Shown: positions 6,227 through 46,789 of the stretch, piece by piece
How the letters are laid out: the number at the start of each line of letters is the position of its first letter
Numbering within the stretch: the first letter of the stretch is position 1
Assembly: GCA_030837625.1 (NCBI GenBank)
Contig: JAUPKF010000001.1
Location: 23,496 to 87,495 of the forward strand
Reading direction: 5' to 3'
Length of the DNA stretch: 64,000 nucleotides
Source: Patescibacteria group bacterium
Lineage (GTDB): Bacteria; Patescibacteriota; Minisyncoccia; Moranbacterales; UBA2206
Program-made: the position numbers and the translations under genes
The notes under the pieces: model-generated
The model's input: only the letters and a program-made list of their open reading frames with translations
What the model was told of the DNA's origin: nothing
The model's database searches: none

Positions 6227-7550
6227 GACGATAAAACTTATTTTGCTAGAGAAGGCGTTGAAGGTGATGGCTGTTTTGGTTTTGAAAAAATATAAGCCGC
6301 GCATAATCGGCATAACCGGATCAATCGGAAAAACTTCCGCCAAGGAAGCTATTTTCACGGTGTTGGCCGGCCATTTTCGGGTTCGCAAAAATGAGAAAAA
6401 TTACAACAACGAAGTCGGTCTGCCCTTGACCATCATCGGGGCGGAGTCCGGAGGGAGATCTTTTGCGGGCTGGTTTTTTGTTTTTCTGCGTTGGCTTCGG
6501 GTGCTGGCTTTGCCTTTCAAATATCCGGAAGTTTTGATTTTGGAAATGGGAGCCGATCGGCCGGGAGACATAAGATATCTGACTAGTTTCATCAAGTCGG
6601 AGATGGCCGTTATCACCGACATCTCATCCAGCCACCTGGAATTTTTCAAAAATATCGAAGGAGTGGCGGCGGAGAAATGGGTGTTGGCGGAAAGCTTGGA
6701 TGGAAAAGGATTGGCGGCGGTTAATATCGATAATTCCCAGATACTCAAGAAAGTGAAGTCTTTACCCAAAGAGAAGGCCAATTTTTTGACTTTCGGCTTT
6801 TCAGAAGAAGCGGAAATCCGCGCCACGGATGTGCTATATAATTATTCTTCGGAAAATGAGACTGAAAGCGCGGGCGAACTCAAGGGTTTGAGCTTCAAGT
6901 TGAACTACAAAGGAACCAGTATTCCAGTACGCCTGAATAATGTTTTGGCTCGGCATAATATTTACGCGGCCTTGGCGGCTATATCGGTCGGAATTGGGTT
7001 TGGACTTAATCTGGTGGAAATCGGAGCGGCTCTGGCTAATTTCTCTATGCCTTGCGGGAGAATGAATCTGATTCCCGGCATAAAAGGTTCTCAGATTATC
7101 GATGACACATATAATTCTTCTCCGGTTTCCGCTTCGGCCGCGCTGGAAGTGCTGGGCAATATTAAAACCGGCAGGAAAATTGCCGTCCTGGGCGATATGT
7201 TGGAGTTGGGAAAAAACACTGAAACAGGACATAGAAGCGTGGCAAAAAAGTTTTTGGAAATCAGGGGAGATATTTTTTTCGCGGTGGGCAAAAGGATGCG
7301 TTTTGCTCTTTCCGAATTGGAGAAAAATAATTTTTCTTCCGACGGTGTATTTGCCTTCTCTGATCCGGAAAAAGCGGGAAGGAAGCTTCAGAGAATCATA
7401 AAAGAGGGCGACGTGGTTCTGGTCAAGGGTTCTCAGGGAATGAGGATGGAAAAAATCGTGGAAGAGATTATGGCAGAGCCTGAAAAATCCGGCAACTACC
7501 TTTGTCGGCAAAGTCCCGCTTGGAAAGAAAAGCCGTGGAAAGAAGTATAA
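6213..7550 (+). CDS. murF: UDP-N-acetylmuramoyl-tripeptide--D-alanyl-D-alanine ligase MurF.
   Basis: Mur ligase P-loop 'GITGSIGKTS' and 'LILEMGADRPGDIRYLT'. The ATG at 6213 has a purine-rich SD and overlaps the ftsI 3' end. The frame start at 6174 is a poly-Lys/Arg readthrough of the ftsI tail. Confidence 0.85.
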   Translation: MTNNKTIKLILLEKALKVMAVLVLKKYKPRIIGITGSIGKTSAKEAIFTVLAGHFRVRKNEKNYNNEVGLPLTIIGAESGGRSFAGWFFVFLRWLRVLALPFKYPEVLILEMGADRPGDIRYLTSFIKSEMAVITDISSSHLEFFKNIEGVAAEKWVLAESLDGKGLAAVNIDNSQILKKVKSLPKEKANFLTFGFSEEAEIRATDVLYNYSSENETESAGELKGLSFKLNYKGTSIPVRLNNVLARHNIYAALAAISVGIGFGLNLVEIGAALANFSMPCGRMNLIPGIKGSQIIDDTYNSSPVSASAALEVLGNIKTGRKIAVLGDMLELGKNTETGHRSVAKKFLEIRGDIFFAVGKRMRFALSELEKNNFSSDGVFAFSDPEKAGRKLQRIIKEGDVVLVKGSQGMRMEKIVEEIMAEPEKSGNYLCRQSPAWKEKPWKEV

Positions 7551-7602
7551 GCATATAAATATAAAGAAATTCTGAATGATAAAAAAATCACTCGCTTTGT
7601 TG

Positions 7603-7631
7603 TTGACAGCCTTTCCAATTATCGCTACAAT
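7603..7631 (+). promoter_or_regulatory. Consensus sigma70 promoter for greA: TTGACA (7603-7608), 17-nt spacer, TACAAT (7626-7631).
   Basis: Read directly from 'ttgacagcctttccaattatcgctacaat'. Confidence 0.55.
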
Positions 7632-8586: not shown

Positions 8587-10038
8587 ATGCGCGAAGATAT
8601 TCAAAAAACCAAACTGGAAAAGTTGGAAAAAATAAAAGCGGCCGGAATGGAGGCTTATCCCGAGAAGTGCGAGAGAACGATGGCGAACAGGGAAGTGTTG
8701 GAAAAATTTTCCAAGCTGGTCGGGAGCAAGGAGGAAATGACCTTGGTCGGGAGGGTAAAATCATATCGCCTTATGGGCAACATTGCTTTTTCGCATATCG
8801 AAGACGGAACGGAGAAAATTCAATTCTTTTTTAACAAGAAAATACTTGGAGAAGATAAGTTTAAATTGTTTGCCGATAGTGTTGAGATTGGTGATTTCAT
8901 ACAGGCGAGGGGCGTTCTTTTTGAAACCAAGGCTGGGGAAAAATCTTTGGAAGTGTGCGATTGGAAAATGTTGGCGAAAAACATCCGGCCGATTCCGACG
9001 GAACATTTCGGCCTGAAAGACGAAGAAGCACTTCTTCGAAAAAGATATCTGGATCTTATGATGAATCCGGAAACGCGGGAAATTTTTCGCAAGAAAAATG
9101 TCTTTTGGCAAACCATCCGCCAATTTTTGGCCGCGGAGGAATTTTTGGAAGTGCAAACTCCGGTGCTGGAGCATATTCCCGGCGGAGCGGACGCGGAACC
9201 GTTTGTGACGCACTATAACGCGCTGAACCAGGATTTTTATCTGCGGATTTCTTTAGAATTACCTCTGAAGCGTTTGTTGGTCGGCGGGTATGAAAAAGTT
9301 TTTGAAATCGGACGGGTTTTTCGCAATGAAGGCATGGACCGGGACCACTTGCAGGAATTTGACCATATGGAATTTTACGCTAGCTATTGGGATATGAAAA
9401 AAGGAATGGAATTTGCTCAGAATTTGTACAAAGAAATAGTTTTCAAAGTTACGGGCGGATATGAGCATGAGTTTGAAGGGGAGAAGATAGATTGGAGCGC
9501 GGATTTTCCGGTGGTGGATTATTTCACGGAATTTCAAAAAGAAACCGGAATAGACTTAAATGCGGACGTGTCCGTCGAAGCGCTTTGCGCGAAGGCGGAC
9601 GAACTTGGCATAAAATACGAAAAATCTTACAGCAAAGGCCGGATGATCGATACGCTTTACAAAAAAACCGTTCGCCAGAAACTCATCCAGCCGTGTTTTT
9701 TAGTCGGCCATCCTTTGGAAGTTTCGCCGCTGGCCAAAATCGATCCTGAAAATCCGAAAAAAGTTTTGCGTTTCCAAATTGTGGCGGGACGCGGAGAGCT
9801 CTGTAACGCTTTCTCCGAACTCAATGATCCAATCGACCAGAAAAATAGATTTCTGGAACAAATGAAAGCCAGGGAAGCCGGAGACGCCGAAGCGCAAATG
9901 ATGGATGAGGATTTTGTTGAAGCTTTGGAATACGGCATGCCGCCGGCATTTGGCTTTGGTATGAGCGAGCGTTTCTTCGCGTTCATTATGAACAAATCCG
10001 TCCGCGAGACAGTCATTTTCGCGGCGGTGAGGAAATAA
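8587..10038 (+). CDS. lysS: Lysyl-tRNA synthetase, class II.
   Basis: N-terminal OB-fold anticodon-binding domain. Class II motifs 'FLEVQTPVL', 'YLRISLELPLKRLLVGGYEKVFEIGRVFRNEG' and 'EFDHMEFY'. Confidence 0.95.
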   Translation: MREDIQKTKLEKLEKIKAAGMEAYPEKCERTMANREVLEKFSKLVGSKEEMTLVGRVKSYRLMGNIAFSHIEDGTEKIQFFFNKKILGEDKFKLFADSVEIGDFIQARGVLFETKAGEKSLEVCDWKMLAKNIRPIPTEHFGLKDEEALLRKRYLDLMMNPETREIFRKKNVFWQTIRQFLAAEEFLEVQTPVLEHIPGGADAEPFVTHYNALNQDFYLRISLELPLKRLLVGGYEKVFEIGRVFRNEGMDRDHLQEFDHMEFYASYWDMKKGMEFAQNLYKEIVFKVTGGYEHEFEGEKIDWSADFPVVDYFTEFQKETGIDLNADVSVEALCAKADELGIKYEKSYSKGRMIDTLYKKTVRQKLIQPCFLVGHPLEVSPLAKIDPENPKKVLRFQIVAGRGELCNAFSELNDPIDQKNRFLEQMKAREAGDAEAQMMDEDFVEALEYGMPPAFGFGMSERFFAFIMNKSVRETVIFAAVRK

Positions 10039-10049
10039 ACTCAAAAAAC

Positions 10050-10568
10050 ATGAAAAACAAAAAGCCGAAAAACTACGCCTTTATCGACAGCCAGAATTTG
10101 AATTTATCGGTGAAAAGATTAGGCTGGAAACTGGATTTTCGCCGTTTTAGAATTTATCTGAAAGAAAAGTATAACGTGAAAGTGGCCTATCTTTTTATCG
10201 GGTATTTATTGGAAAATCAAGATTTATACAATTCCCTTCAAAAATACGGATACGTTTTAGTTTTTAAGCCGACACTTAAGAACAAGGATGGGAAAGTGAA
10301 AGGAAACTGTGATGCGGAGCTTGTGCTACAGGCTATGATAGACTTTAATAATTACGAAAAAGCTATTCTTGTCAGCGGCGATGGAGATTTTCATTGTTTG
10401 GTGCACTATCTTGATCAAAAAAATAAACTGGAAAAAATTCTAATTCCGGATCAGTTTAATTATTCCGCCCTATTGAAAAAATTCGCTTCAAAGCTGGCAT
10501 TTTTGAATAATCTTAGGCAAAAGTTGGAGTATGAAAATAAAAAGCACCCGATAAGGACGAAACCTTAG
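10050..10568 (+). CDS. NYN-domain (LabA/DUF88-like, PIN-related) predicted RNase.
   Basis: 'AFIDSQNL', 'GNCDAELVLQAM' and 'AILVSGDGDF' match the NYN/LabA acidic catalytic motifs. Confidence 0.7.
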   Translation: MKNKKPKNYAFIDSQNLNLSVKRLGWKLDFRRFRIYLKEKYNVKVAYLFIGYLLENQDLYNSLQKYGYVLVFKPTLKNKDGKVKGNCDAELVLQAMIDFNNYEKAILVSGDGDFHCLVHYLDQKNKLEKILIPDQFNYSALLKKFASKLAFLNNLRQKLEYENKKHPIRTKP

Positions 10569-10831
10569 CGGGGTCTTTTTGTCGTAATTCTGCTTTGAGT
10601 ATAGCAGAATGACTGAAAATTGTCAAACGCCATGCTCACTATAAATACCTGACTCTGGTGGAAATATTTCAATGAAAAAACCGGCGTTGCTGGACGAAAA
10701 ATAGAAAAACGTGTAGGGTATGTTTTACGAATGAAAGATTTGGAATTTTAGGATAAAAAAATATAGAGGAATATGGTTTTGGGTGATGGGATTGTAGTAG
10801 TTCCTGAACAATTTGGATGTGGAGGTAAATT

Positions 10832-11269
10832 ATGGGAAAAGAAAAAGAAGGACTTATTCGACTGATCAAGGTCAGGGAAGATGGCAAGGAGGTGGACATA
10901 ACTCCGCCGCCGGTTCACGTCAATACGAGGCGATTGGGGAGTCATTTAGGAGAGCCGGCTAACTATTCTTCCGCGATGGCGGCTCACAGGATATTGAAAG
11001 CGGCTGAAGTTAGCGAGAAAAGAACGTATGCCTGTTTTGAAGCAGGTAGATCTTTGGGGACGCTTTCTGACGAGTGGCTTATTGACAAAATAGTCGCCAA
11101 GTATGGAGAAGGTGTTAGGCCGGCTGTTTTTGAAGTCATTTCGGCTTGGCGAATTGATCCAGAAAATTTCGGGAAAAACATTGGGCCATACGCGCGGATT
11201 ACGGAAAACATCCGCAAACACATTCAAGAGGACATAGCGGAAAGAAAGGAGAAGGACGATGCCGATTAA
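10832..11269 (+). CDS. Hypothetical protein. Its stop overlaps the start of the next ORF.
   Basis: ORF with an SD-like 'ggaggtaaatt' upstream. No family was recognised. GC is higher than in the flanking DNA. Confidence 0.45.
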   Translation: MGKEKEGLIRLIKVREDGKEVDITPPPVHVNTRRLGSHLGEPANYSSAMAAHRILKAAEVSEKRTYACFEAGRSLGTLSDEWLIDKIVAKYGEGVRPAVFEVISAWRIDPENFGKNIGPYARITENIRKHIQEDIAERKEKDDAD

Positions 11270-11678
11270 CGCTCTTTTGATTAAGGAAGCCAAGTTGTCC
11301 GTTGATTCCAAAGTGGCGATGATGGCAGGACTGCTTGACCCTGAACCAATTTCGAGGCCGGTTTTTATTCCAAGCTATAATCCCAATCCCGAAAGCGAGG
11401 ATATGGGACGGCCGGTAACGGCAGCTGAGGCACTTCAGGCGGAAAAAATTATGAATCTAGGCGAATGCTGCAAGGGCGGGAAGACTTGTTCTTGCGGCCT
11501 TGAGCAGAAGACTTTTTTCGAACTGCTCCTGGCCAAGGTGGCCAATGAGCGCGGACTCGGAGTTCCATTGAATGTAGTGTTTAAAGAGATCGAGGAGCGA
11601 TACGGCAGGAGCTCTGTCGCTTCAATCAAGCTCACGCTTGCGGCTGGTCAGGAGTGGCCGGCGCCACCCAGTTGCTAG
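11259..11678 (+). CDS. Hypothetical protein containing the Cys cluster 'CCKGGKTCSC'.
   Basis: ORF translationally coupled to the previous one. No family was recognised. Confidence 0.45.
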   Translation: MPINALLIKEAKLSVDSKVAMMAGLLDPEPISRPVFIPSYNPNPESEDMGRPVTAAEALQAEKIMNLGECCKGGKTCSCGLEQKTFFELLLAKVANERGLGVPLNVVFKEIEERYGRSSVASIKLTLAAGQEWPAPPSC

Positions 11679-11825
11679 CGGGAGAGAAGGCTAGTTGTGT
11701 AAATGTTTGGCCGGTTCGGGGGTTCCCCGCGCCGGCTTTTTTTATTGCTAAATTGCAAAATTGTTGCTAATATAAATTCAAGAAAAATAACAATTCGGCA
11801 ATGTAACCATTTAACAATTTTGCTT

Positions 11826-13103
11826 ATGCTCGATATCAAATACATTCGCGATAACGCGGAGGCGGTGAAAAAAAATTGCGAACTACGAAATATCAAATGC
11901 GATATTGGTCGACTTTTGATATTGGACGAAAAAAGGCGAAGCCTTTTGACTTATACGGAAGAACTAAACGCCGAAAAGAATAAACTGAATGAATTGATTC
12001 AGATGTCCAAGGATGCCGAGCGAAAAACTTTGATCGAACAAGGGAAAGCGGTGAAAGAAAAACTGGAAATAACCAAGCCGGAAATGGAGGAAGTGGAAAA
12101 AGAATATAAAATTTTGCTTTTACAAGTGTCGAATATGACTCATCCGGATTCTCCAATTGGCAAAGACGACAATGAAAATAAGGAAATTGAAAGATACGGC
12201 GAACCACCAAAGTTTGATTTCGAGCCGAAAGGGCACGAAGAATTGATGACAGCGCTGGATATAATCGATTTTGAACGAGGCGCCAAAGTGGCCGGATCGA
12301 AGTTCTATTTCTTGAAAAACGAGGGAGTAATGTTGGAGCTGGCACTTACTCAGTTTGCTTTCAATAAGCTTATCCAAAAAGGCTTTACGCCTTTTGCCAC
12401 GCCGGACTTGGCCAAAGACAAAGTTTTGTTGGGAATTGGGTATAATCCGCGCGGAGCGGAAACGCAAATTTACAGCGTGGAAAATACGGATTTAAACTTG
12501 GTAGGGACGGCGGAAATCACTATGGGCGGGTATCATATGGACGAAACAATCCCGGAAGACAAACTGCCTTTAAAATATGCGGCGTTGTCTCATTGCTATC
12601 GCACCGAAGCCGGCTCGTACGGACGCCACAGCGCCGGACTTTATCGCGTTCATCAATTTACTAAAATCGAAATGTTTGCTTACACGACACCGGAAACATC
12701 GGAAGCGATGCACACGGAGCTGAAAAATATCGAAGTGGAAATTTTCAAAGATTTGGGCGTGCCTTTTCGAGTGGTGGATATTTGCACCGGCGATCTCGGC
12801 GGCCCGGCTCAACGGAAGTATGATTTGGAAGCTTGGATGACTTCCCGCGACGGTTGGGGAGAAGTGACTTCGACTTCCGACACGACCACTTATCAAGCCA
12901 GACGATTGAATGTCAAAGTCGAGCGGCGTGACGGCAAAAAAGAATTCTTGCATATGCTCAACGGAACCGCCATCGCGGTTTCCCGCGCGCTTATCGCCAT
13001 CATCGAAAATTACCAGCAGGAAGACGGCAGCGTAAAAATTCCGGAGGTCTTGAAAAAATATATGCCGGAGGGGATGGAGGTTATCAAAAAGAAATGTAAA
13101 TGA
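11826..13103 (+). CDS. serS: Seryl-tRNA synthetase.
   Basis: ATG at 11826 ('MLDIKYIRDN'). Has the N-terminal coiled-coil arm and class II motifs ('HCYRTEAGSYGRHSAGLYRVHQFTKIE', 'GTAIAVSRALIAIIENYQ'). Confidence 0.95.
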   Translation: MLDIKYIRDNAEAVKKNCELRNIKCDIGRLLILDEKRRSLLTYTEELNAEKNKLNELIQMSKDAERKTLIEQGKAVKEKLEITKPEMEEVEKEYKILLLQVSNMTHPDSPIGKDDNENKEIERYGEPPKFDFEPKGHEELMTALDIIDFERGAKVAGSKFYFLKNEGVMLELALTQFAFNKLIQKGFTPFATPDLAKDKVLLGIGYNPRGAETQIYSVENTDLNLVGTAEITMGGYHMDETIPEDKLPLKYAALSHCYRTEAGSYGRHSAGLYRVHQFTKIEMFAYTTPETSEAMHTELKNIEVEIFKDLGVPFRVVDICTGDLGGPAQRKYDLEAWMTSRDGWGEVTSTSDTTTYQARRLNVKVERRDGKKEFLHMLNGTAIAVSRALIAIIENYQQEDGSVKIPEVLKKYMPEGMEVIKKKCK

Positions 13104-13654
13104 AAAAACAAACACTAATACCCATAGAGTCTATCCAGCAGAAAATTTATTTTATCCGCGGGGAAAAAGTGATGTTTGACCGTGATTTGGCGGTGCTTTA
13201 TGGGGTTACTACTGGGAATTTAAACAAGGCTGTCAAGAGAAACATAAAACGTTTCCCATTTGATTTCATGTTTCAACTTAACAAAAAAGAAGCAGGCGTG
13301 TTTTCAAGATTCCAGATTGGAAGCTTGAACGACGGTGAATCTTCAAGGTCACAAATTGTGACCTTGAAAAGAGGTTACAATATTAAATATGCCCCTTATG
13401 TTTTTACCGAACAGGGCATTGCGATGCTTTCGAGCGTCCTTAACAGCGAGCGGGCGATACAGGTTAACATTCAGATAATGCGCATTTTTACAAGTCTTAG
13501 GAAAATGTTGATGACTCACAAGGAACTGAAAACAAAAATCGAGGCGATGGAGAAAAAATATGACAAAAAATTCGCCATTGTTTTCGAAACGATAAAACTG
13601 CTTTTGAAAGAAGACGCCAAGCCGAAAAAACAGATAGGTTTTAAGTGTGGTTAA
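13100..13654 (+). CDS. ORF6N-domain protein (phage antirepressor-associated DNA-binding domain family).
   Basis: 'IRGEKVMFDRDLAVLYGVTTGNLNKAVKRNIKRFPFDFMFQL ... YAPYVFTEQGIAMLSSVL' matches the ORF6N domain. The start overlaps the serS stop (ATGA). Confidence 0.7.
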   Translation: MKKQTLIPIESIQQKIYFIRGEKVMFDRDLAVLYGVTTGNLNKAVKRNIKRFPFDFMFQLNKKEAGVFSRFQIGSLNDGESSRSQIVTLKRGYNIKYAPYVFTEQGIAMLSSVLNSERAIQVNIQIMRIFTSLRKMLMTHKELKTKIEAMEKKYDKKFAIVFETIKLLLKEDAKPKKQIGFKCG

Positions 13655-14321
13655 AAAATTAATAAAAAAACAGATGACAAACATGTGGAAAGTTGCCGTT
13701 TTGGCGGCGGGAGTGGTTCTTCTCGCGGGGTGCGGGAATAAAGGGGCAAACAATCAGCCGGAAGCTAGAAGCGGTCCGGACGAGAAAGCGCCTGTAGAAA
13801 ACGTTCAGAAACCGGGCGGAATGATCAGTTCCATCAAAGACGCGATGGGGCTGGGGACTGCGATGAAATGTACTTACACGGACACGTTTGACGGAAAGAC
13901 TTATGTCTCCGAGGCGTATGTCAAAGGGGACAATTACAAATCGGCCAACGAAGTGGATGGGAAAAAAATGAATTCGCTTTTTGACGGAAAAGTTATTTAT
14001 TCTTGGACGGAGGGAGAGAAAAAGGGAACGAAGATGGAAGCGAAGTGTTTTGAGGATATGCCAAAGCCGGAAGAAAAAGCGGACAGCGATTCTGCCGCGC
14101 CAATCGAAGAGAAAAGCCCGGAAGACGAGTTTGAAAACGCCATGGACGTGAAATGCGAACCGGCTGGCGGAGTGGATTTCAATCCCCCAACGGACGTTGT
14201 TTTCGAAGACCAATGCGAGATGATGAAAAATCTTATGAAGAATATTCCCGCTAATGTTCCCGGTATGCCCGAAAATATTCCGCAAAATATGAATATTCCG
14301 AATATGAACATTCCGGAATAA
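13647..14321 (+). CDS. Putative lipoprotein with an acidic, Asn/Pro-repeat C-terminus.
   Basis: Signal peptide with the lipobox 'VLLAGCGNK'. The tail is 'NMNIPNMNIPE'. The start is probably the internal Met near 13674. Confidence 0.55.
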   Translation: MVKKLIKKQMTNMWKVAVLAAGVVLLAGCGNKGANNQPEARSGPDEKAPVENVQKPGGMISSIKDAMGLGTAMKCTYTDTFDGKTYVSEAYVKGDNYKSANEVDGKKMNSLFDGKVIYSWTEGEKKGTKMEAKCFEDMPKPEEKADSDSAAPIEEKSPEDEFENAMDVKCEPAGGVDFNPPTDVVFEDQCEMMKNLMKNIPANVPGMPENIPQNMNIPNMNIPE

Positions 14322-14407
14322 GGGAAAGTAAAAAATCTATTTCTTTATGGCAAAAAAGTTAAAATTTCCGGAAGGGCTTGTCCCGTAGGAAAAGTTAATC
14401 GCGCAAA

Positions 14408-15649
14408 ATGGAAAAAGAAAAACCGGATAATACGCAAGAATCTTATAATATTGGCCGAAAAAAAGTTCTAACTTTTCCTGCGGGGTTTCTTTGGGGCGCG
14501 GGCTTGTCGTCCCACCAGGCTGAGGGTGGCAATACTAAGAATGACTGGTATTTTTGGGAGAAAAATAGCAGGAAAGTGAAGGAAGAGTCAGGGGCAGCTT
14601 GTGATTATTGGAACAGATATGAAGAAGATCATAAGATGGCTGGCAGAATGAATTTAAATTCTCTCAGGATATCCTTGGAGTGGTCAAGAATCGAGCCAGA
14701 GGAAGGAGAGTTTGACGATGAAGCGATTGAACATTACCGGAAAATGCTTATCGATATGAAAGCCAATGGGCTTAGGCGCGTGGTTACGCTTCATCACTAT
14801 ACTGTTCCATTGTGGTTTTTTCAGAGGTACGGATGGCATAAAAAAGATTCTGTCAGACTTTTTTCTCGTTATGCCGAGAAGGTGATCAGTGAGTTGGGGG
14901 GTGAGATCGAAATTATAGTCACTATAAACGAGCCAAGACTGGTTGTGAACCGGGGATATCTAGTAGCTGATCGTCCGCCAGGAAAAAGGAATCCTTTCTT
15001 ATTTTGGAAAGCGCGAAAAAACTTGGTAGAAGCGCATAAGAAGGCCTACACAGTCATGAAAAATATATTTCCTGATTTGCCGGTTGGTATAACCCAGTTT
15101 ACTAATGATTTTGATTATTTCGGAAAAGGACGATGGCAGAATTGGTTGACAGAAAGGATAGAGAATTTTTATAACTGGCATTTTTTTGATGAGATTGGGG
15201 ACAAGCAGGATTTTATCGGGGTAAACTATTATTATGGAGCGAAGGTCAGGCTCGGGTATCCTTTTTATGAGTTAGCGACCTACGAAAAAAAAGTGACGGA
15301 TATGGGTTGGGGGATGATGCCAGAGGGAATTTATGAGATTATCATGGATGCCTGGGAAAGATATAAAAAGCCGATCTATATACTAGAGAATGGAATTGCT
15401 GACAGCGAAGATAGATACAGGGCTGAATTTATATGTGGTCACATAAGGGCTGTTCATAAGGCAGTTAAAAAAGGCGCTGATGTCCGCGGATATTTTTATT
15501 GGTCTTTTTTGGACAACTATGAATGGAACGCTGGGTACTCGATGCGGTTTGGGCTTGTCGAAGTGGACTACAAAACCCAAGTCCGGACGATTAGAAAGAG
15601 CGCGCTGGAATATGCCAAGATTTGCAGGAGCAATGAGTTGGAAATATAA
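14408..15649 (+). CDS. Glycoside hydrolase family 1 beta-glucosidase/beta-galactosidase.
   Basis: GH1 N-terminal signature 'FLWGAGLSSHQAEGG'. Acid/base motif 'TINEP' and nucleophile motif 'YILENGIAD'. Confidence 0.9.
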   Translation: MEKEKPDNTQESYNIGRKKVLTFPAGFLWGAGLSSHQAEGGNTKNDWYFWEKNSRKVKEESGAACDYWNRYEEDHKMAGRMNLNSLRISLEWSRIEPEEGEFDDEAIEHYRKMLIDMKANGLRRVVTLHHYTVPLWFFQRYGWHKKDSVRLFSRYAEKVISELGGEIEIIVTINEPRLVVNRGYLVADRPPGKRNPFLFWKARKNLVEAHKKAYTVMKNIFPDLPVGITQFTNDFDYFGKGRWQNWLTERIENFYNWHFFDEIGDKQDFIGVNYYYGAKVRLGYPFYELATYEKKVTDMGWGMMPEGIYEIIMDAWERYKKPIYILENGIADSEDRYRAEFICGHIRAVHKAVKKGADVRGYFYWSFLDNYEWNAGYSMRFGLVEVDYKTQVRTIRKSALEYAKICRSNELEI

Positions 15650-22018: not shown

Positions 22019-22187
22019 TATTCTTTGAGATCTATATTAAAAACGCCACAAGCTGGCTTTTTTGGCGTAAGAAAAATCTGCATAGTCTTCGTTTCGCCCG
22101 AAATAATTCTTTGTGGTTGACGGTAGTGTATTATGGGTATATATTCATAATATAAATATATCCAAAATAGAAAGGCGGGTGATAATT

Positions 22188-38865: not shown

Positions 38866-38875
38866 ACATAATCAT

Positions 38876-39289
38876 ATGAAAATTGGCATAATAGGTTCAA
38901 TGCAGTTTACTGACAAAATGGTTGAGGTCAAGGCGGATCTTATAAAATTGGGACATGATGCGTTTATTACGGACTTGCATAAAACCATGATTGGAAAAAC
39001 AGATGAAGAGATTGAACAAATCAAACTTCATCAAAAGTATAATATGGATGCGATTCGTGAGTTTTGAAATGCTATGCAGGGAGCGGACGCTGTCCTTGTT
39101 TTGAATTTTGATAAAAATGGCGTCAAAAATTATGTTGGTGGAAATACCCTCATGGAAATCGGTTTTGCCCATGTTTTGAATCAAAAAATATTTATGTGGA
39201 ATCCAGTACCGGATATGCCATATTGCAAAACAGAAATTGAAGCCGTCAAGCCGGTTATCATTGATGGAGATTTAGTAAAAATAGCCTAA
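38876..39289 (+). pseudogene. Nucleoside 2-deoxyribosyltransferase-like protein interrupted by a single in-frame TGA at 39065-39067.
   Basis: ORFs 38876-39067 and 39074-39289 are in the same frame. 'MKIGIIGSMQF...' plus '...ADAVLVLNFDKNG...GGNTLMEIGFAHVLNQKIFMW' together resemble one nucleoside deoxyribosyltransferase-like fold. Confidence 0.5.
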
Positions 39290-39299
39290 CTATATTATT

Positions 39300-43727: not shown

Positions 43728-44750
43728 ATGTTTAAAAAGAAAAAAACTTACATAATATTCGCGCTGGTTATTTTGGCTGTGGGCGGTTATTTTTACCAAA
43801 AATCCAAAGCGCCTAAAGCGGAATATACAACGGCGGAGGCGCGGAGAGGAACGCTTAGTCAGACTGTTTCTGTTACAGGCGCGGCAGCTTCCCGGCATGA
43901 AGTGGAGTTGTCTTTCAAGACCAGCGGGATCATTCAGAATCTGTACGTTGATATCGGGGATAGAGTGGAAAAGGGGCAAAAAGTGGCGGTTATCGACAAA
44001 GGCACTCTTTATGCCGAGCTCAGTCAAGCCAAACAAAACGTGACGGCGCAAAAGCAAACGCTGGCCAATATGAAACGCGAGGGAAACGCTTTCAAGGTCG
44101 AACAGGAAAACGCCCAGCGAGCCGAAATCAGAAAGGCTGAAGCGGCGGTGGGACAAATTTACGCCAGATTTGCCGATACGGTTTTATATTCTCCGATGGA
44201 CGGGATCGTTATTCGACGAAACGGGGAAGTGGGAGAAACCATCACTGCCAATTCAGCGGCTTCCAACACTCCGGTGGTGACGGTGGCGCAAGAAGGGGAT
44301 TTGGAAGTGAAAGCCGATGTGCCGGAATCGGACATTGTGAAAATAGCGCTGGGGCAAAAAGCGGACATAACCTTGGATGCTTTTTCTTCCAGCAAGGATG
44401 TCTTTGAAGGAGAAGTAATCGACATCGAACCGGCATCGACCGTTATCCAGGACGTCGTTTATTATAAAGTGAAATTTAAGATATTGAATTACGACCAAAG
44501 GATAAAAAACGGCATGAGCGCCGACCTTGATATCAAAACAGCTTCCAAGGATAATGTTATTTTCGTTCCGGAGCGCGCCGTGAAAGAGGAAAACGGCAAA
44601 AAGTACGTTGAGATCTTGAAAGACGAAGCGACGAGCGAGGTTGAAAAAATCTTTGTCGAAACGGGACTTAAGGGAAATGAGGGGATGATTGAAATAACGA
44701 AAGGGTTGAATGGCGGAGAGAGGGTTGTGACGCTCACAAAGACACCGTGA
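43728..44750 (+). CDS. HlyD-family periplasmic adaptor (MacA-like) of a tripartite ABC efflux system.
   Basis: N-terminal transmembrane anchor. Biotinyl/lipoyl-like motif 'VSVTGAAASRHEVELSFKTSGII' and 'ADTVLYSPMDGIV'. C-terminal beta-barrel domain. Confidence 0.85.
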   Translation: MFKKKKTYIIFALVILAVGGYFYQKSKAPKAEYTTAEARRGTLSQTVSVTGAAASRHEVELSFKTSGIIQNLYVDIGDRVEKGQKVAVIDKGTLYAELSQAKQNVTAQKQTLANMKREGNAFKVEQENAQRAEIRKAEAAVGQIYARFADTVLYSPMDGIVIRRNGEVGETITANSAASNTPVVTVAQEGDLEVKADVPESDIVKIALGQKADITLDAFSSSKDVFEGEVIDIEPASTVIQDVVYYKVKFKILNYDQRIKNGMSADLDIKTASKDNVIFVPERAVKEENGKKYVEILKDEATSEVEKIFVETGLKGNEGMIEITKGLNGGERVVTLTKTP

Positions 44751-44752
44751 TT

Positions 44753-44778
44753 GTAGGGGTTTGATTTATCAAACCCCG
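44753..44778. repeat. REP-like hairpin immediately upstream of the RAYT gene.
   Basis: 'tgtaggggtttgatttatcaaacccc'. The inner 22 nt are palindromic. The reverse complement recurs at 45127-45152. Confidence 0.6.
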
Positions 44779-44790
44779 TTGACTCAAAAA

Positions 44791-45402
44791 ATGCCATACA
44801 AAAACAGAAAATCTAACCGTTTAGAGAATTATGATTATTCTCAAAACGGTATGTATTTTGTAACAATATGCACAAAAGACAGGGTTGAGCATTTCGGAGA
44901 AATTAAAGATGGCAAAATGATTTTGAATGAGTCGGGAGAAATTGCGTTGAAAAATTTACGTGACGTATCAAATCATTTTGAAAGCGTATGTTTGGACGAG
45001 TATGTTGTTATGCCGAATCACCTTCACTGCATATTGGAAATTGATACGGCGGTGCAATTTTTGGATAAACCGGATGTAGGGGTTCAATTTATTGAACCTG
45101 TTGTTGACGCGGGGTTTGCCGAGGGCGGGTTTGATAAATCAAACCCCTACGCAGCGTGTATAGGAAACAATCCAATGTTAATGAGCAAAACAACATTGGG
45201 AAAGATCATCAGATATTGCAAGGCAAAGACGGCCTGTGAAATTCGTGGGAGCATGGATTTTTGGCAGTTTGCCTGGCAGAAAAATTATTATGACCACATT
45301 GTTCGCAATGAAATATCTCTCAATAAAATTCGTGAGTATATTCAGGAAAATCCAAAAACGTGGGAACGGGACAGAAATAATGTTGAAAATTTAAACATGT
45401 GA
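44791..45402 (+). CDS. REP-associated tyrosine transposase (RAYT, IS200/IS605-like Y1 HuH transposase family).
   Basis: 'MYFVTICTKDR', HuH motif 'VVMPNHLHCIL' and catalytic Tyr motif 'WQKNYYDHIVRNE'. A roughly 25-aa insert lies between the motifs ('VGVQFIEPVVDAGFAEGGFDKSNPY'). It is encoded by REP-like hairpins. Confidence 0.8.
   Translation: MPYKNRKSNRLENYDYSQNGMYFVTICTKDRVEHFGEIKDGKMILNESGEIALKNLRDVSNHFESVCLDEYVVMPNHLHCILEIDTAVQFLDKPDVGVQFIEPVVDAGFAEGGFDKSNPYAACIGNNPMLMSKTTLGKIIRYCKAKTACEIRGSMDFWQFAWQKNYYDHIVRNEISLNKIREYIQENPKTWERDRNNVENLNM
45077..45152. repeat. REP-like hairpin doublet inside the RAYT coding sequence. It is the inverse copy of the upstream REP.
   Basis: 'gtaggggttcaatttattgaacc' and 'gggtttgataaatcaaacccctac'. 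The flanks 'gtagggg ... cccctac' form an outer inverted repeat. Confidence 0.55.
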
Positions 45403-45412
45403 TGACAAAATA

Positions 45413-45460
45413 AAAAAAGCAGACTGCGCGCCGGTAACGCTGGGCGCGAATCTGCTTTGT
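45413..45460 (-). terminator. Rho-independent terminator for the minus-strand gene below (it may also act on + transcripts from the RAYT).
   Basis: GC-rich stem 'gcagactgcgcgcc' / 'ggcgcgaatctgc'. On the minus strand it is followed by a T6 run (the A-run at 45413-45419). Confidence 0.55.
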
Positions 45461-45484
45461 GAACGAGGAAAAAACGGAGGCGGT

Positions 45485-45817
45485 TCAGGTCGGAGACATA
45501 AGCATCTCGATAGCATCAACGAGATCGTCTGTGCCTCCTAATCTGTACCGATTTACGAAAATCTCCGATAATCTTGCCTCTCGCTCGGCTACGTTATTGT
45601 CGATAGCGCGGGGACAGGTCATACCGGGAATTCCCTGAATCAGTCGAACTTGTGCCTTTGAGACGGCGATGCCATCGTTCTCATGGTCTCTGGCGAAGTT
45701 GAGGAGGTCGGCAATTTCGGATCTTGTCAGTGGATGATAGTCAGGAAGATCTTTATCAAGAGGTATGTCCCCATAGGCTTCATGCGGGCATGGAATTTCA
45801 AATGCGTACTTTCTCAT
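45485..45817 (-). CDS. Hypothetical protein of 110 aa in a GC-rich (about 50%) foreign-looking cassette on the minus strand.
   Basis: ORF 'MRKYAFEIPCPHEAYGDIPLDKDLPDYHPLTRSEIADLLNFARDHENDGIAVSK...'. Strong SD 'aaggag' 9 nt upstream of the ATG. Has its own consensus promoter and terminator. No family was recognised. Confidence 0.5.
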   Translation of the reverse strand: MRKYAFEIPCPHEAYGDIPLDKDLPDYHPLTRSEIADLLNFARDHENDGIAVSKAQVRLIQGIPGMTCPRAIDNNVAEREARLSEIFVNRYRLGGTDDLVDAIEMLMSPT

Positions 45818-45923
45818 GACGTTATTTCTCCTTTCTGGTCTGGATTGGCTTGCTAAAGACGGTTGAAGTTTCCCCTCAAGTGAGGGCTTCCTCGACACTA
45901 AAACTTTTAAGAACTAATCTTAC

Positions 45924-45952
45924 ATTATACACCCAAACCCATGAAAAGTCAA
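45924..45952 (-). promoter_or_regulatory. Consensus sigma70 promoter on the minus strand: TTGACT, 17-nt spacer, TATAAT with a TG extension. It drives the 45485-45817 gene.
   Basis: The reverse complement of 45924-45952 reads 'ttgacttttcatgggtttgggtgtataatg'. Confidence 0.5.
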
Positions 45953-46789
45953 CCCCCCACCAATTCCAAAGAAAGATTAAATAATCAGAAGGATTATGGC
46001 ACGGAATCGTCTAGCGGCTCGAATTTTTCTTATTCTGAGTCAGGTGAGAGAATTGGTAGGGGGCAAGGCGCGTTAATCCAAGTTCAAAATCTCTGCAAGA
46101 CTTACGATAACGAAGGCGTGAAGACGGCGGCGATGTGCGGCGCGAGTTTTGTTATTGGAAAGGGTGAGTTTGTTTCGATAATGGGGCCGAGCGGGAGCGG
46201 GAAATCGACGCTGATGCAGATTTTGGGAATGCTGGACCGGCCGACGGAGGGGAAATATTTTTTCGAAGGGAAAGATACTTTCGGTTTTGACGATGACACG
46301 CTGGCGGGAATCCGCAACAAAAAAATCGGGTTTGTTTTTCAGTCGTTCAATTTGCTTCCAAGAACTTCGGTCTATGAAAATGTGGAGTTGCCGTTGCTTT
46401 ATGATTCCAAGCCGGACGGGCAGAACAGGAAAAAAGTTATGGACGCGCTCCTGGCGGTTGGGATGGAACATCGGGAGAAATATCTTTCCAATCAACTCTC
46501 CGGCGGGGAAAAACAACGGGTGGCGATCGCGCGGGCTTTGGTCAACAATCCGGACGTGGTTTTTGCCGACGAGCCGACGGGAAATTTGGATTCCAAATCC
46601 GGTCTTCAGGTAATGAAAATTTTACAAAAATTAAATAACGACGGACATACTATAATTTTGGTGACTCACGAGACTTACACTGCCGAGCACGCCGAGAGGA
46701 TACTTTATATGAAAGACGGACAGATTGTTGCTGATGATCCGGTGAGGAATCGGAGGATGGCGGATGGAGAAAGCGAGCTTTTGAAATAA
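45941..46789 (+). CDS. ABC transporter ATP-binding protein (MacB/LolD-type) with an unusual, roughly 50-aa Ser/Gly-rich N-terminal extension.
   Basis: Walker A 'GPSGSGKST', Q-loop, signature '[15 protein letters not shown]', Walker B '[11 protein letters not shown]' and H-loop 'LVTHE'. Confidence 0.85.

Follow-up and report, generated by a model that had tools for sequence, protein, structure and literature searches.

The 64,000-nucleotide (nt) stretch of a Patescibacteria group bacterium analysed here (contig JAUPKF010000001.1), referred to below as the window, contains a gene for a REP-associated tyrosine transposase (RAYT) that carries two repetitive extragenic palindromic (REP) hairpins in frame within its own coding sequence and a third one just upstream. 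Together they very probably make up a REPtron that is of the TnpA_Y1 subclass 2.4 / RAYT group 4 type and resides in a Moranbacteria-like Patescibacteria genome. Quentin, Siguier, Chandler and Fichant (2018, PMC6006769) have described the in-gene, in-frame REP as unique to TnpA_Y1 subclass 2.4, the equivalent of RAYT group 4 in the scheme of Bertels, Gallie and Rainey (2017, PMC5581495). With the core phenomenon described in 2018, the window is a confirmation and an extension, in the form of a Patescibacteria example, and it provides quantitative support for a constraint on the internal REPs at the nucleic-acid level.

The RAYT gene and its REP hairpins

The elements of the REPtron are located in the window as follows.
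44753..44778, plus strand: REP A, GTAGGGGTTTGATTTATCAAACCCC, with a GTAG tag and a stem of 9-10 base pairs (bp) (GGGGTTTGAT/ATCAAACCCC)
44791..45402, plus strand: RAYT (tnpA_REP) gene, 203 residues, TnpA_Y1 subclass 2.4-like, single copy in the window
45016..45027, plus strand: HuH motif NHLH (N76-H77-L78-H79); N76, H77 and H79 invariant in 33 aligned sequences
45076..45098, plus strand: REP B, GTAGGGGTTCAATTTATTGAACC, internal variant, read in frame as V96-P103 (VGVQFIEP)
45099..45126, plus strand: spacer of the internal doublet, with a half-REP remnant GGGGTTTG at 45111-45118
45127..45152, minus strand: REP C, inverted, read in frame as G113-Y120 (GFDKSNPY)
45274..45306, plus strand: putative W / GTAG-recognition motif WQKNYYDHIVR (W162, Q163, D168, H169, R172), aligned to residues 94-104 of PDB entry 4ER8
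45337..45354, plus strand: putative catalytic Tyr motif YIQENP (Y183...N187-P188), with the class-2 signature Y---NP; Y183, N187 and P188 invariant in the 33-sequence alignment

REP A lies 2 nt past the stop codon of a gene for an HlyD-type adaptor and 13 nt ahead of the RAYT ATG, just upstream of the start as proposed in a first-pass annotation of this DNA, and its GTAG is followed by a GGG...CCC stem foot. Within the gene, REP B is an 83% variant that shares the orientation of REP A, and the inverted REP C shows full (100%) complementarity to A over 24 nt and 83% complementarity to B. B and C form a REPIN-like inverted doublet whose tags point outward and which spans 25 residues. The first-pass annotation had pointed both to an exact internal reverse complement of the upstream hairpin, next to a variant, and to an in-frame doublet of about 25 residues between the HuH and Tyr motifs, and both observations are borne out.

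The identification of the three hairpins as genuine GTAG-tagged REPs is supported. The hairpin pattern, with up to 3 mismatches allowed, has 2 sites versus 0.00 expected from 100 shuffles, and a window-wide scan for GTAG with a stem of at least 7 bp returned REPs A, B and C plus a single AT-rich chance match at 22123. Folded as single-stranded DNA (ssDNA), REP A reaches -9.2 kcal/mol (z = -4.4) and the B-C segment -17.8 kcal/mol (z = -3.6). The gene had been described in the first-pass annotation as single-copy and REP-flanked; it is indeed a single copy in the window, but a REP stands on its 5' side only, and its 3' side holds no REP, only an untagged GC-rich hairpin (45418-45456) that is terminator-like. 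Two other identities were rejected. REP A is not an intrinsic terminator, since no T-run follows its stem and the terminator scan was empty there; nor does the region belong to a known RNA family, as Rfam searches of 44300-46100 gave chance-level matches to mir-5880 (24 bits, gathering score 97) and sok (16.5 bits).

The open reading frame (ORF) extends over 44761-45402 on the plus strand, and its true start, ATG 44791, was set from homologues and from the identical database protein P0001 (203 residues, 100% identity), which NCBI names REP-associated tyrosine transposase and assigns to a Patescibacteria group bacterium. That the gene is of the RAYT-type Y1/HuH kind, as first proposed, is supported by domain matches and by a predicted fold. 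Pfam Y1_Tnp matches the C-terminal half of the protein only (27.1 bits). The match to NCBIfam REP_Tyr_transpos falls in two stretches, which is expected because the insert splits the domain, and transpos_IS200 reaches 15.9 bits versus a cut-off of 55. The match to E. coli TnpA_REP (PDB 4ER8) has an E-value of 0.58 with the single sequence and of 2.4e-4 with the family profile, and these sequence alignments span the HuH and W-Y blocks only: MPNHLHCIL aligns with LPEHMHCIW, and WQKNYYDHIVR...EYIQENP with WQPRFWEHAIR...DYIYINP.

In this alignment W162, Q163, D168, H169 and R172 are paired with W94, Q95, E100, H101 and R104 of 4ER8, and Y183 and N187 correspond to Y115 and N119. If the residue roles are taken from PMC6006769 (HuH histidines, GTAG-recognition block, catalytic Tyr and third metal ligand), H77 and H79 are the putative HuH histidines, W162, Q163, D168, H169 and R172 the putative GTAG-recognition residues, Y183 the putative catalytic Tyr and N187 the putative third metal ligand. 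All catalytic and GTAG-recognition residues are thus intact in the motif alignments. The HuH motif lies in 'PNHLHCIL', where it had first been placed; 'NYYDH', which had been taken for the catalytic Tyr motif, belongs instead to the candidate recognition motif WQxxYYDH, and the tyrosine that would carry out catalysis is the one in 'YIQENP'.

An AlphaFold2 model (mean predicted local distance difference test score, pLDDT, 75.5; predicted template modelling score 0.70) places a strand at residues 77-84 and a helix at 136-154, separated by a disordered stretch at 85-135, with pLDDT below 50 over residues 96-131. The best matches of the model in a Foldseek search of the PDB are the ISDra2 transposase, TnpA_REP (4ER8) and the IS608 transposase. 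The REP-coded residues 96-120 are therefore predicted to form a disordered loop that links the HuH strand to the helix after it, and the alignment with E. coli TnpA_REP (YafM) likewise places the insert between the conserved HuH and W-Y blocks. The first-pass annotation had left two options, an inactivated RAYT or a tolerated loop insertion; the low pLDDT and the intact residues favour the loop insertion and speak against inactivation.

Internal REPs among homologous genes

The search for relatives of the RAYT protein returned 578 homologues (167-264 residues among the 120 matches listed). When 33 of them were aligned, the sole hypervariable region was the stretch from the HuH motif to the following helix, and its peptide words resemble translated GTAG hairpins (VGVRFIEP, VETQFIAS, VGNAYMRS, VGAVHEPPL, DAINRVST, DEAMPRLY). 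The distance between the HuH and W motifs, about 86 residues in the window protein, ranges from 55 to 115 across the family. A set of 80 homologous loci (35-43% identity) was drawn from Chloroflexota, Cyanobacteria, Bacteroidota, Gammaproteobacteria (Actinobacillus among them), Nitrospirota, Planctomycetota, the candidate phyla radiation (CPR) and others, and the gene could be delimited in 76 of them. In 63 of these 76 loci, the interval from the HuH to the WQ motif contains one or more strict GTAG hairpins, corresponding to a density of 5.0 hairpins per kb versus 0.11 per kb in distant flanks, and most of the 13 remaining loci carry degenerate, retagged or split REPs. To judge from the sequences compared, the in-frame internal REP is a family trait and no one-off, and the self-insertion that had been called unusual loses that standing, since REP-coded residues also occupy this loop in homologues of many phyla and the trait is published for subclass 2.4 (PMC6006769).

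The internal REPs are specific to the lineage and follow the REPs of their own locus. Identity between the internal and the flanking REP of a locus has a median of 0.96 and is at least 0.9 in 31 of 40 loci, as compared to a median of 0.52, with 1.4% at 0.9 or above, when the internal REP is set against the REPs of other loci. Their number varies from 0 to 3 per locus, and their orientation and reading frame differ between lineages: the tag is read as GTA/G 47 times and as xGT/AG 14 times, and never as xxG/TAG, which would produce a stop. The encoded proteins show an HuH motif of the form NH[VIL]H, WQ in 76/76 loci, a tyrosine motif of the form Y[IV]xxNP (modal YIxNNP) and a W-to-Y spacing that is constant at 21 residues in 71 loci. 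Pairwise covariation over the 76 loci would be circular, given that the hairpin detector demands pairing, and synonymous-site conservation within a clade of six genes was employed instead.

Three of the loci deserve separate mention. In L018 (503-743) the internal REP is a GTAGGGGCAGGTTT...AAACCTGCCCCTAC hairpin with approximately 40 nt inserted in its loop. Two REPs about 100 nt apart form one long stem in L055 (10214-10475; -54 kcal/mol), and in L065 (2114-2147) a run of masking Ns sits exactly at the expected internal REP, with a CTACCCC foot visible at its edge.

The clade consists of the window gene and its relatives in L168, L170, L162, L163 and L169, whose proteins are 54-62% identical to the window protein. 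All five relatives carry the B-C doublet at the identical place. The stem of REP B takes the form GGGTTCAAT/ATTGAACCC or GGGTTCGAT/ATCGAACCC, the latter in L162, L163 and L169, and that of REP C the form GGGTTTGAT/ATCAAACCC or GGGCTTGAT/ATCAAGCCC. These forms differ by compensatory double changes, from A:T to G:C in REP B and from T:A to C:G in REP C, which alter the peptide from Q to R (B) and from F to L with N to S (C). The spacer of the doublet varies in length among the orthologues through partial duplications of the half-REP GGGTTTGAT, seen in the peptide as 'GFD' repeats.

Codon-aligned nucleotide identity over the six genes is 0.91 in REP B and 0.94 in REP C, compared to 0.68 in the folded core, and at third codon positions the values are 0.82, 1.00 and 0.49, respectively. 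The segment that is predicted to be disordered is thus the best conserved DNA of the RAYT gene. Taken together, the third-position conservation and the compensatory stem changes indicate that the hairpins are under constraint, or undergo repeated homogenisation, at the level of the nucleic acid and not of the peptide. REPs outside the gene are inconstant in this clade: an upstream REP is found for the window gene only, L163 has a downstream REP of another class, a dispersed REP doublet is located about 1.4 kb downstream of the RAYT gene in L162, and the other three relatives have no REP in the roughly 100 nt inspected on each side of the gene. The internal doublet is therefore the sole constant REP association of the six genes.

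These data bear on the idea that a REP doublet inserted recently and only once, marking an inactivated or decaying transposase. The window protein does have 25 residues more than its shorter relatives, the identity of C with A over 24 nt has the look of a recent copy, and the window holds no dispersed REPs. Yet five relatives that have diverged to 54-62% protein identity carry the doublet in the same position, REPs occupy the same loop in 63 of 76 distant homologues, the frame is open with catalytic and recognition residues intact and the insert in a predicted disordered loop, and the arrangement is published as a family trait (PMC6006769); we consider a one-off event highly improbable.

A less improbable but still rather unlikely alternative is that the internal REPs are neutral passengers, which insert preferentially near their own transposase gene, survive only in a permissive loop, have no function and are not maintained. 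This would fit the disordered loop and its hypervariable length (55-115 residues between HuH and W), the variation of copy number (0-3), orientation and frame between lineages, the suggestion that the activity of the protein is little affected by internal REPs (PMC6006769), and the tolerance of in-frame REPs in unrelated genes (PMC3733652, and the ComFC-like ORFs described below). Under neutrality, however, third-position identities of 0.82-1.00 versus 0.49 in the core and compensatory stem changes are unexpected; in addition, the shortest family members seem to keep one REP-coded word, as judged from their peptide words and from hairpins in loci with gaps of 56-59 residues, and degenerate remnants are in the minority.

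The same third-position identities and compensatory changes, together with the constancy of the internal doublet in the six-gene clade, lead us to suggest, tentatively, that the internal REP or REPIN of subclass 2.4 may be a cis element that is under selection and co-evolves, in which case the gene would carry a master copy of its own substrate. If this were true, the master copy would travel with the ORF at every transfer and could not be lost without damage to the gene, and it would either give rise to new REP populations or enable the enzyme to regulate or edit the gene that encodes it.

A mechanism can be proposed along these lines. By analogy with E. coli TnpA_REP, the RAYT would be an HuH/Y1 single-strand DNA nuclease-ligase. 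As in E. coli TnpA_REP and IS608, it may recognise the GTAG at the foot of a REP hairpin on ssDNA through WQ...DH..R, cleave through Y183 with a metal held by H77, H79 and N187, and rejoin the strands; hairpins A, B and C would all be acted upon. The B-C doublet would be read as 25 residues of a disordered surface loop, leaving the enzyme intact. The internal copies most likely originated by RAYT-mediated copying into the nearest ssDNA and would survive only in the permissive loop between HuH and helix, where hairpin selection, ongoing exchange with other copies, or both, may keep them uniform.

The route by which REPs are copied in vivo is still unproven, and RAYTs are, to our knowledge, the only domesticated-looking transposases that are tied to a genome-wide repeat family. 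A RAYT subclass with its presumed substrate hairpin in its own coding sequence is a natural experiment, in which synonymous recoding could separate effects of the protein from those of the DNA or RNA. The window provides a comparison set: a junction that is empty, one that is occupied by another RAYT, and orthologues whose stem changes compensate each other.

Dispersal of the REP and turnover of the RAYT gene

The first-pass annotation had looked to further copies of the hairpin; none lies in the other ~63 kb of the window, but the 25-mer of REP A recurs unchanged in at least 80 stretches of metagenome DNA, of which 75 have no RAYT homologue. In these, 66 of 82 copies of the 25-mer lie outside long ORFs, often 3-70 nt past an ORF end, and about 1.7 further related sites occur per 10 kb, a rough value in which some hairpins may be counted twice. 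By this sequence evidence, the element appears as a dispersed REP in related genomes, the window genome being REP-poor at least locally. A link to phages was rejected, with one RAYT relative in 2.9 million viral contigs and the REP 25-mer absent there.

We also observed the identical 25-mer inside ComFC-like ORFs of five metagenome contigs (L090, 11089-11826; L127; L140, 2131-2868; L149, 1994-2689; L151), where it is read in frame at 142 nt from the 3' end; these ORFs encode a double zinc ribbon and a phosphoribosyltransferase domain. The REP is thus tolerated inside another gene linked to DNA handling.

The RAYT gene lies between the HlyD-type adaptor gene (43728-44750) and a gene for an ABC ATPase (45941-46789). 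In two related contigs, whose adaptors are 77-78% identical to that of the window, the adaptor stop abuts the ABC start and there is no RAYT. The closest relative, L165/L166, has an adaptor of 82% and an ABC ATPase of 83% identity and does carry a RAYT at the junction, but this is only 41% identical to the window protein, which suggests replacement or a preferred landing site. The nearest relatives of the window RAYT occupy other genomic contexts. The empty, differently occupied and relocated sites indicate that the RAYT gene turns over on evolutionary time scales. The additional features of the junction are listed below.
44751..46068 (end approximate), no strand: DNA that is extra relative to the 'empty' adaptor-ABC junction, comprising REP A, the RAYT gene, the hairpin, a minus-strand orphan ORF and a new 5' end of the ABC gene
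45418..45456, no strand: GC-rich untagged hairpin between the convergent RAYT gene and orphan ORF; -12.7 kcal/mol, z = -3.3

Presence or absence at this junction, with relatives elsewhere, and a Y1 transposase fold are also what an autonomous insertion sequence of the IS200/IS605 type would display, in which A and the internal hairpins would be the left and right subterminal hairpins and the gene would move on evolutionary time scales. Other features speak against such an element. The Y motif is Y---NP (class 2) and not Y---Q (class 1.1, IS200), and the HuH motif is NHLH, not DH[VI]H; tnpB is lacking, the 64 kb contain the gene just once, and no tagged end hairpin lies downstream of it. Moreover, A and C are on opposite strands, when IS200/IS605 ends share one strand, and excision from A to B would take out the 5' half of the gene. 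We regard this explanation as extremely unlikely.

A number of further observations concern these sites. At the L165/L166 junction (7024-7605), the resident RAYT also has an internal REP pair unlike that of the window, GTAGGGGCGGACCTGGTGTCCGCCC and, inverted, ...GGACAGACACAAGGTCTGTCCCTAC. In L163 (Moraniibacteriota), which is otherwise syntenic with the window at 33.7-43.5 kb, the RAYT gene and a gene for a 1585-residue SNF2-family helicase lie between PfkB and CoA ligase genes (9742-15156); the 430-nt gap of the window that corresponds to this RAYT site (38866-39299) contains small ORFs only, with no GTAG hairpin or REP scar. No tRNA adjoining the RAYT of L168 was detected by ARAGORN.

The orphan ORF (45485-45898, minus strand) is convergent with the RAYT gene and encodes 137 residues from a GTG, or 110 residues in its NCBI form; a promoter-like site at 45952-45924 (TTGACT-17-TATAAT) matches the consensus at 11 of 12 positions. 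It has no Pfam or NCBIfam match and only 4 homologues in 5.8 billion proteins, and it is missing from the RAYT-occupied junction of L165; no link between this ORF and the RAYT was established by the Pfam, NCBIfam and homologue searches. On its far side, the ABC ATPase gene of the window has lost the start codon of its relatives (MPLIQVQNL... in L167), homology beginning at about 46068 (..ALIQVQNL). Its only in-frame start is ATG 45941, and approximately 43 extra residues come from the inserted DNA (45941-46070). We note also that in L165/L166 a gene of the 23S_rRNA_IVP family (8425-8823 in L165) separates the ABC ATPase gene from that of the MacB permease, and that L167 has no gene there.

Subclass assignment and comparison with known systems

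Subclass 2.4 has been characterised by the motifs NH[IFV]H, WQ and YIxNNP, a median length of 194 residues and 1.5 copies per genome (Table 1 of PMC6006769). The same work describes an insertion that separates beta3 from alphaC, is variable and was modelled as a peripheral extension, as well as an 8-residue insertion at the end of alphaB; the REPs of the subclass, long or double-foot, have a 5' GT[AG]G and a stem foot of three G-C pairs and lie within +/-1000 nt of the gene, and the subclass is distributed over Cyanobacteria, Bacteroidetes and various other phyla. The window protein has WQ and the (E/D)H..R residues, and an insertion of variable length and sequence between beta3 and alphaC, as seen in the AlphaFold2 model and in the family distances. 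The in-gene REP feature is represented by B and C, and a canonical long REP close to the gene by REP A, with its GTAG and GGG...CCC foot 13 nt upstream. A single gene copy within the 64 kb fits the low copy number (mean 1.5).

Several points weigh against this assignment and what is built on it. No REP copy lies outside the REPtron in the other ~63 kb of the window, which leaves the activity of the RAYT in the host genome putative. The match to REP_Tyr_transpos, at 57.6 bits, is under the curated cut-off of 80 for that family. Conservation at synonymous sites could stem from overwriting by dispersed copies and not from a function of the internal copy. Two motif positions also deviate: the HuH residue L (NHLH) is outside the NH[IFV]H consensus, though NHLH is found in 14 of 76 loci and 29 of the 120 homologues listed, and the fourth residue of YIQENP is E, compared to N in YIxNNP, with Y---NP kept. 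The range of hydrophobic residues at the HuH position in class 2 as a whole is L, V, I, F, Y and M (PMC6006769).

The window system resembles subclass 2.4 / group 4 in its NHxH, WQ and Y-I-x-x-N-P motifs, in its long GTAG-tagged REPs with a GGG/CCC foot and in its low copy number. Its protein is of similar size (203 residues versus a median of 194), and its REP abundance is low to moderate, where that of group 4 is only modest (Bertels et al. 2017, PMC5581495). The phyla of its homologues match Table 1 of PMC6006769 and the group 4 distribution of PMC5581495. It differs in its host, Patescibacteria (CPR) being named in neither of the two papers, in having an inverted doublet as internal element versus a single or 'double-foot' REP, and in the lack of a 3' REP and of dispersed copies in 63 kb.

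With E. coli TnpA_REP (YafM; subclass 2.2 / group 2; PDB 4ER8) it shares the predicted fold, the HuH motif, WQ...(E/D)H..R and Y...N, and a GTAG-tagged REP with the gene adjoining cognate REPs. Similarity over the whole protein is, however, barely detectable, and the HuH-to-W distance is 35 residues in E. coli versus about 85 in the window. In-gene REPs are not reported for subclass 2.2 (PMC6006769), and E. coli holds hundreds of dispersed REPs and bacterial interspersed mosaic elements.

The internal doublet is comparable to a REPIN (Bertels and Rainey 2011, PMC3116915), with two inverted REPs, a 29-nt spacer and arms that are 83% complementary. Unlike a REPIN, it lies within a coding sequence and is translated, and the window contains no population of identical doublets.

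In-frame GTAG REPs have been reported in many genes, and REPtrons in species without a REP family (Di Nocera et al. 2013, PMC3733652). Like the Rickettsia palindromic elements (RPEs) and the intragenic GTAG/CGTC REPs of that study, the internal REPs of the window gene are palindromic repeats that are read in frame, add about 8-30 residues and presumably form a surface loop. What sets them apart from both is that the host gene encodes the enzyme presumed to act on the repeat, that the insertion site is conserved across a protein subclass, and that the repeat tracks the local REP family.

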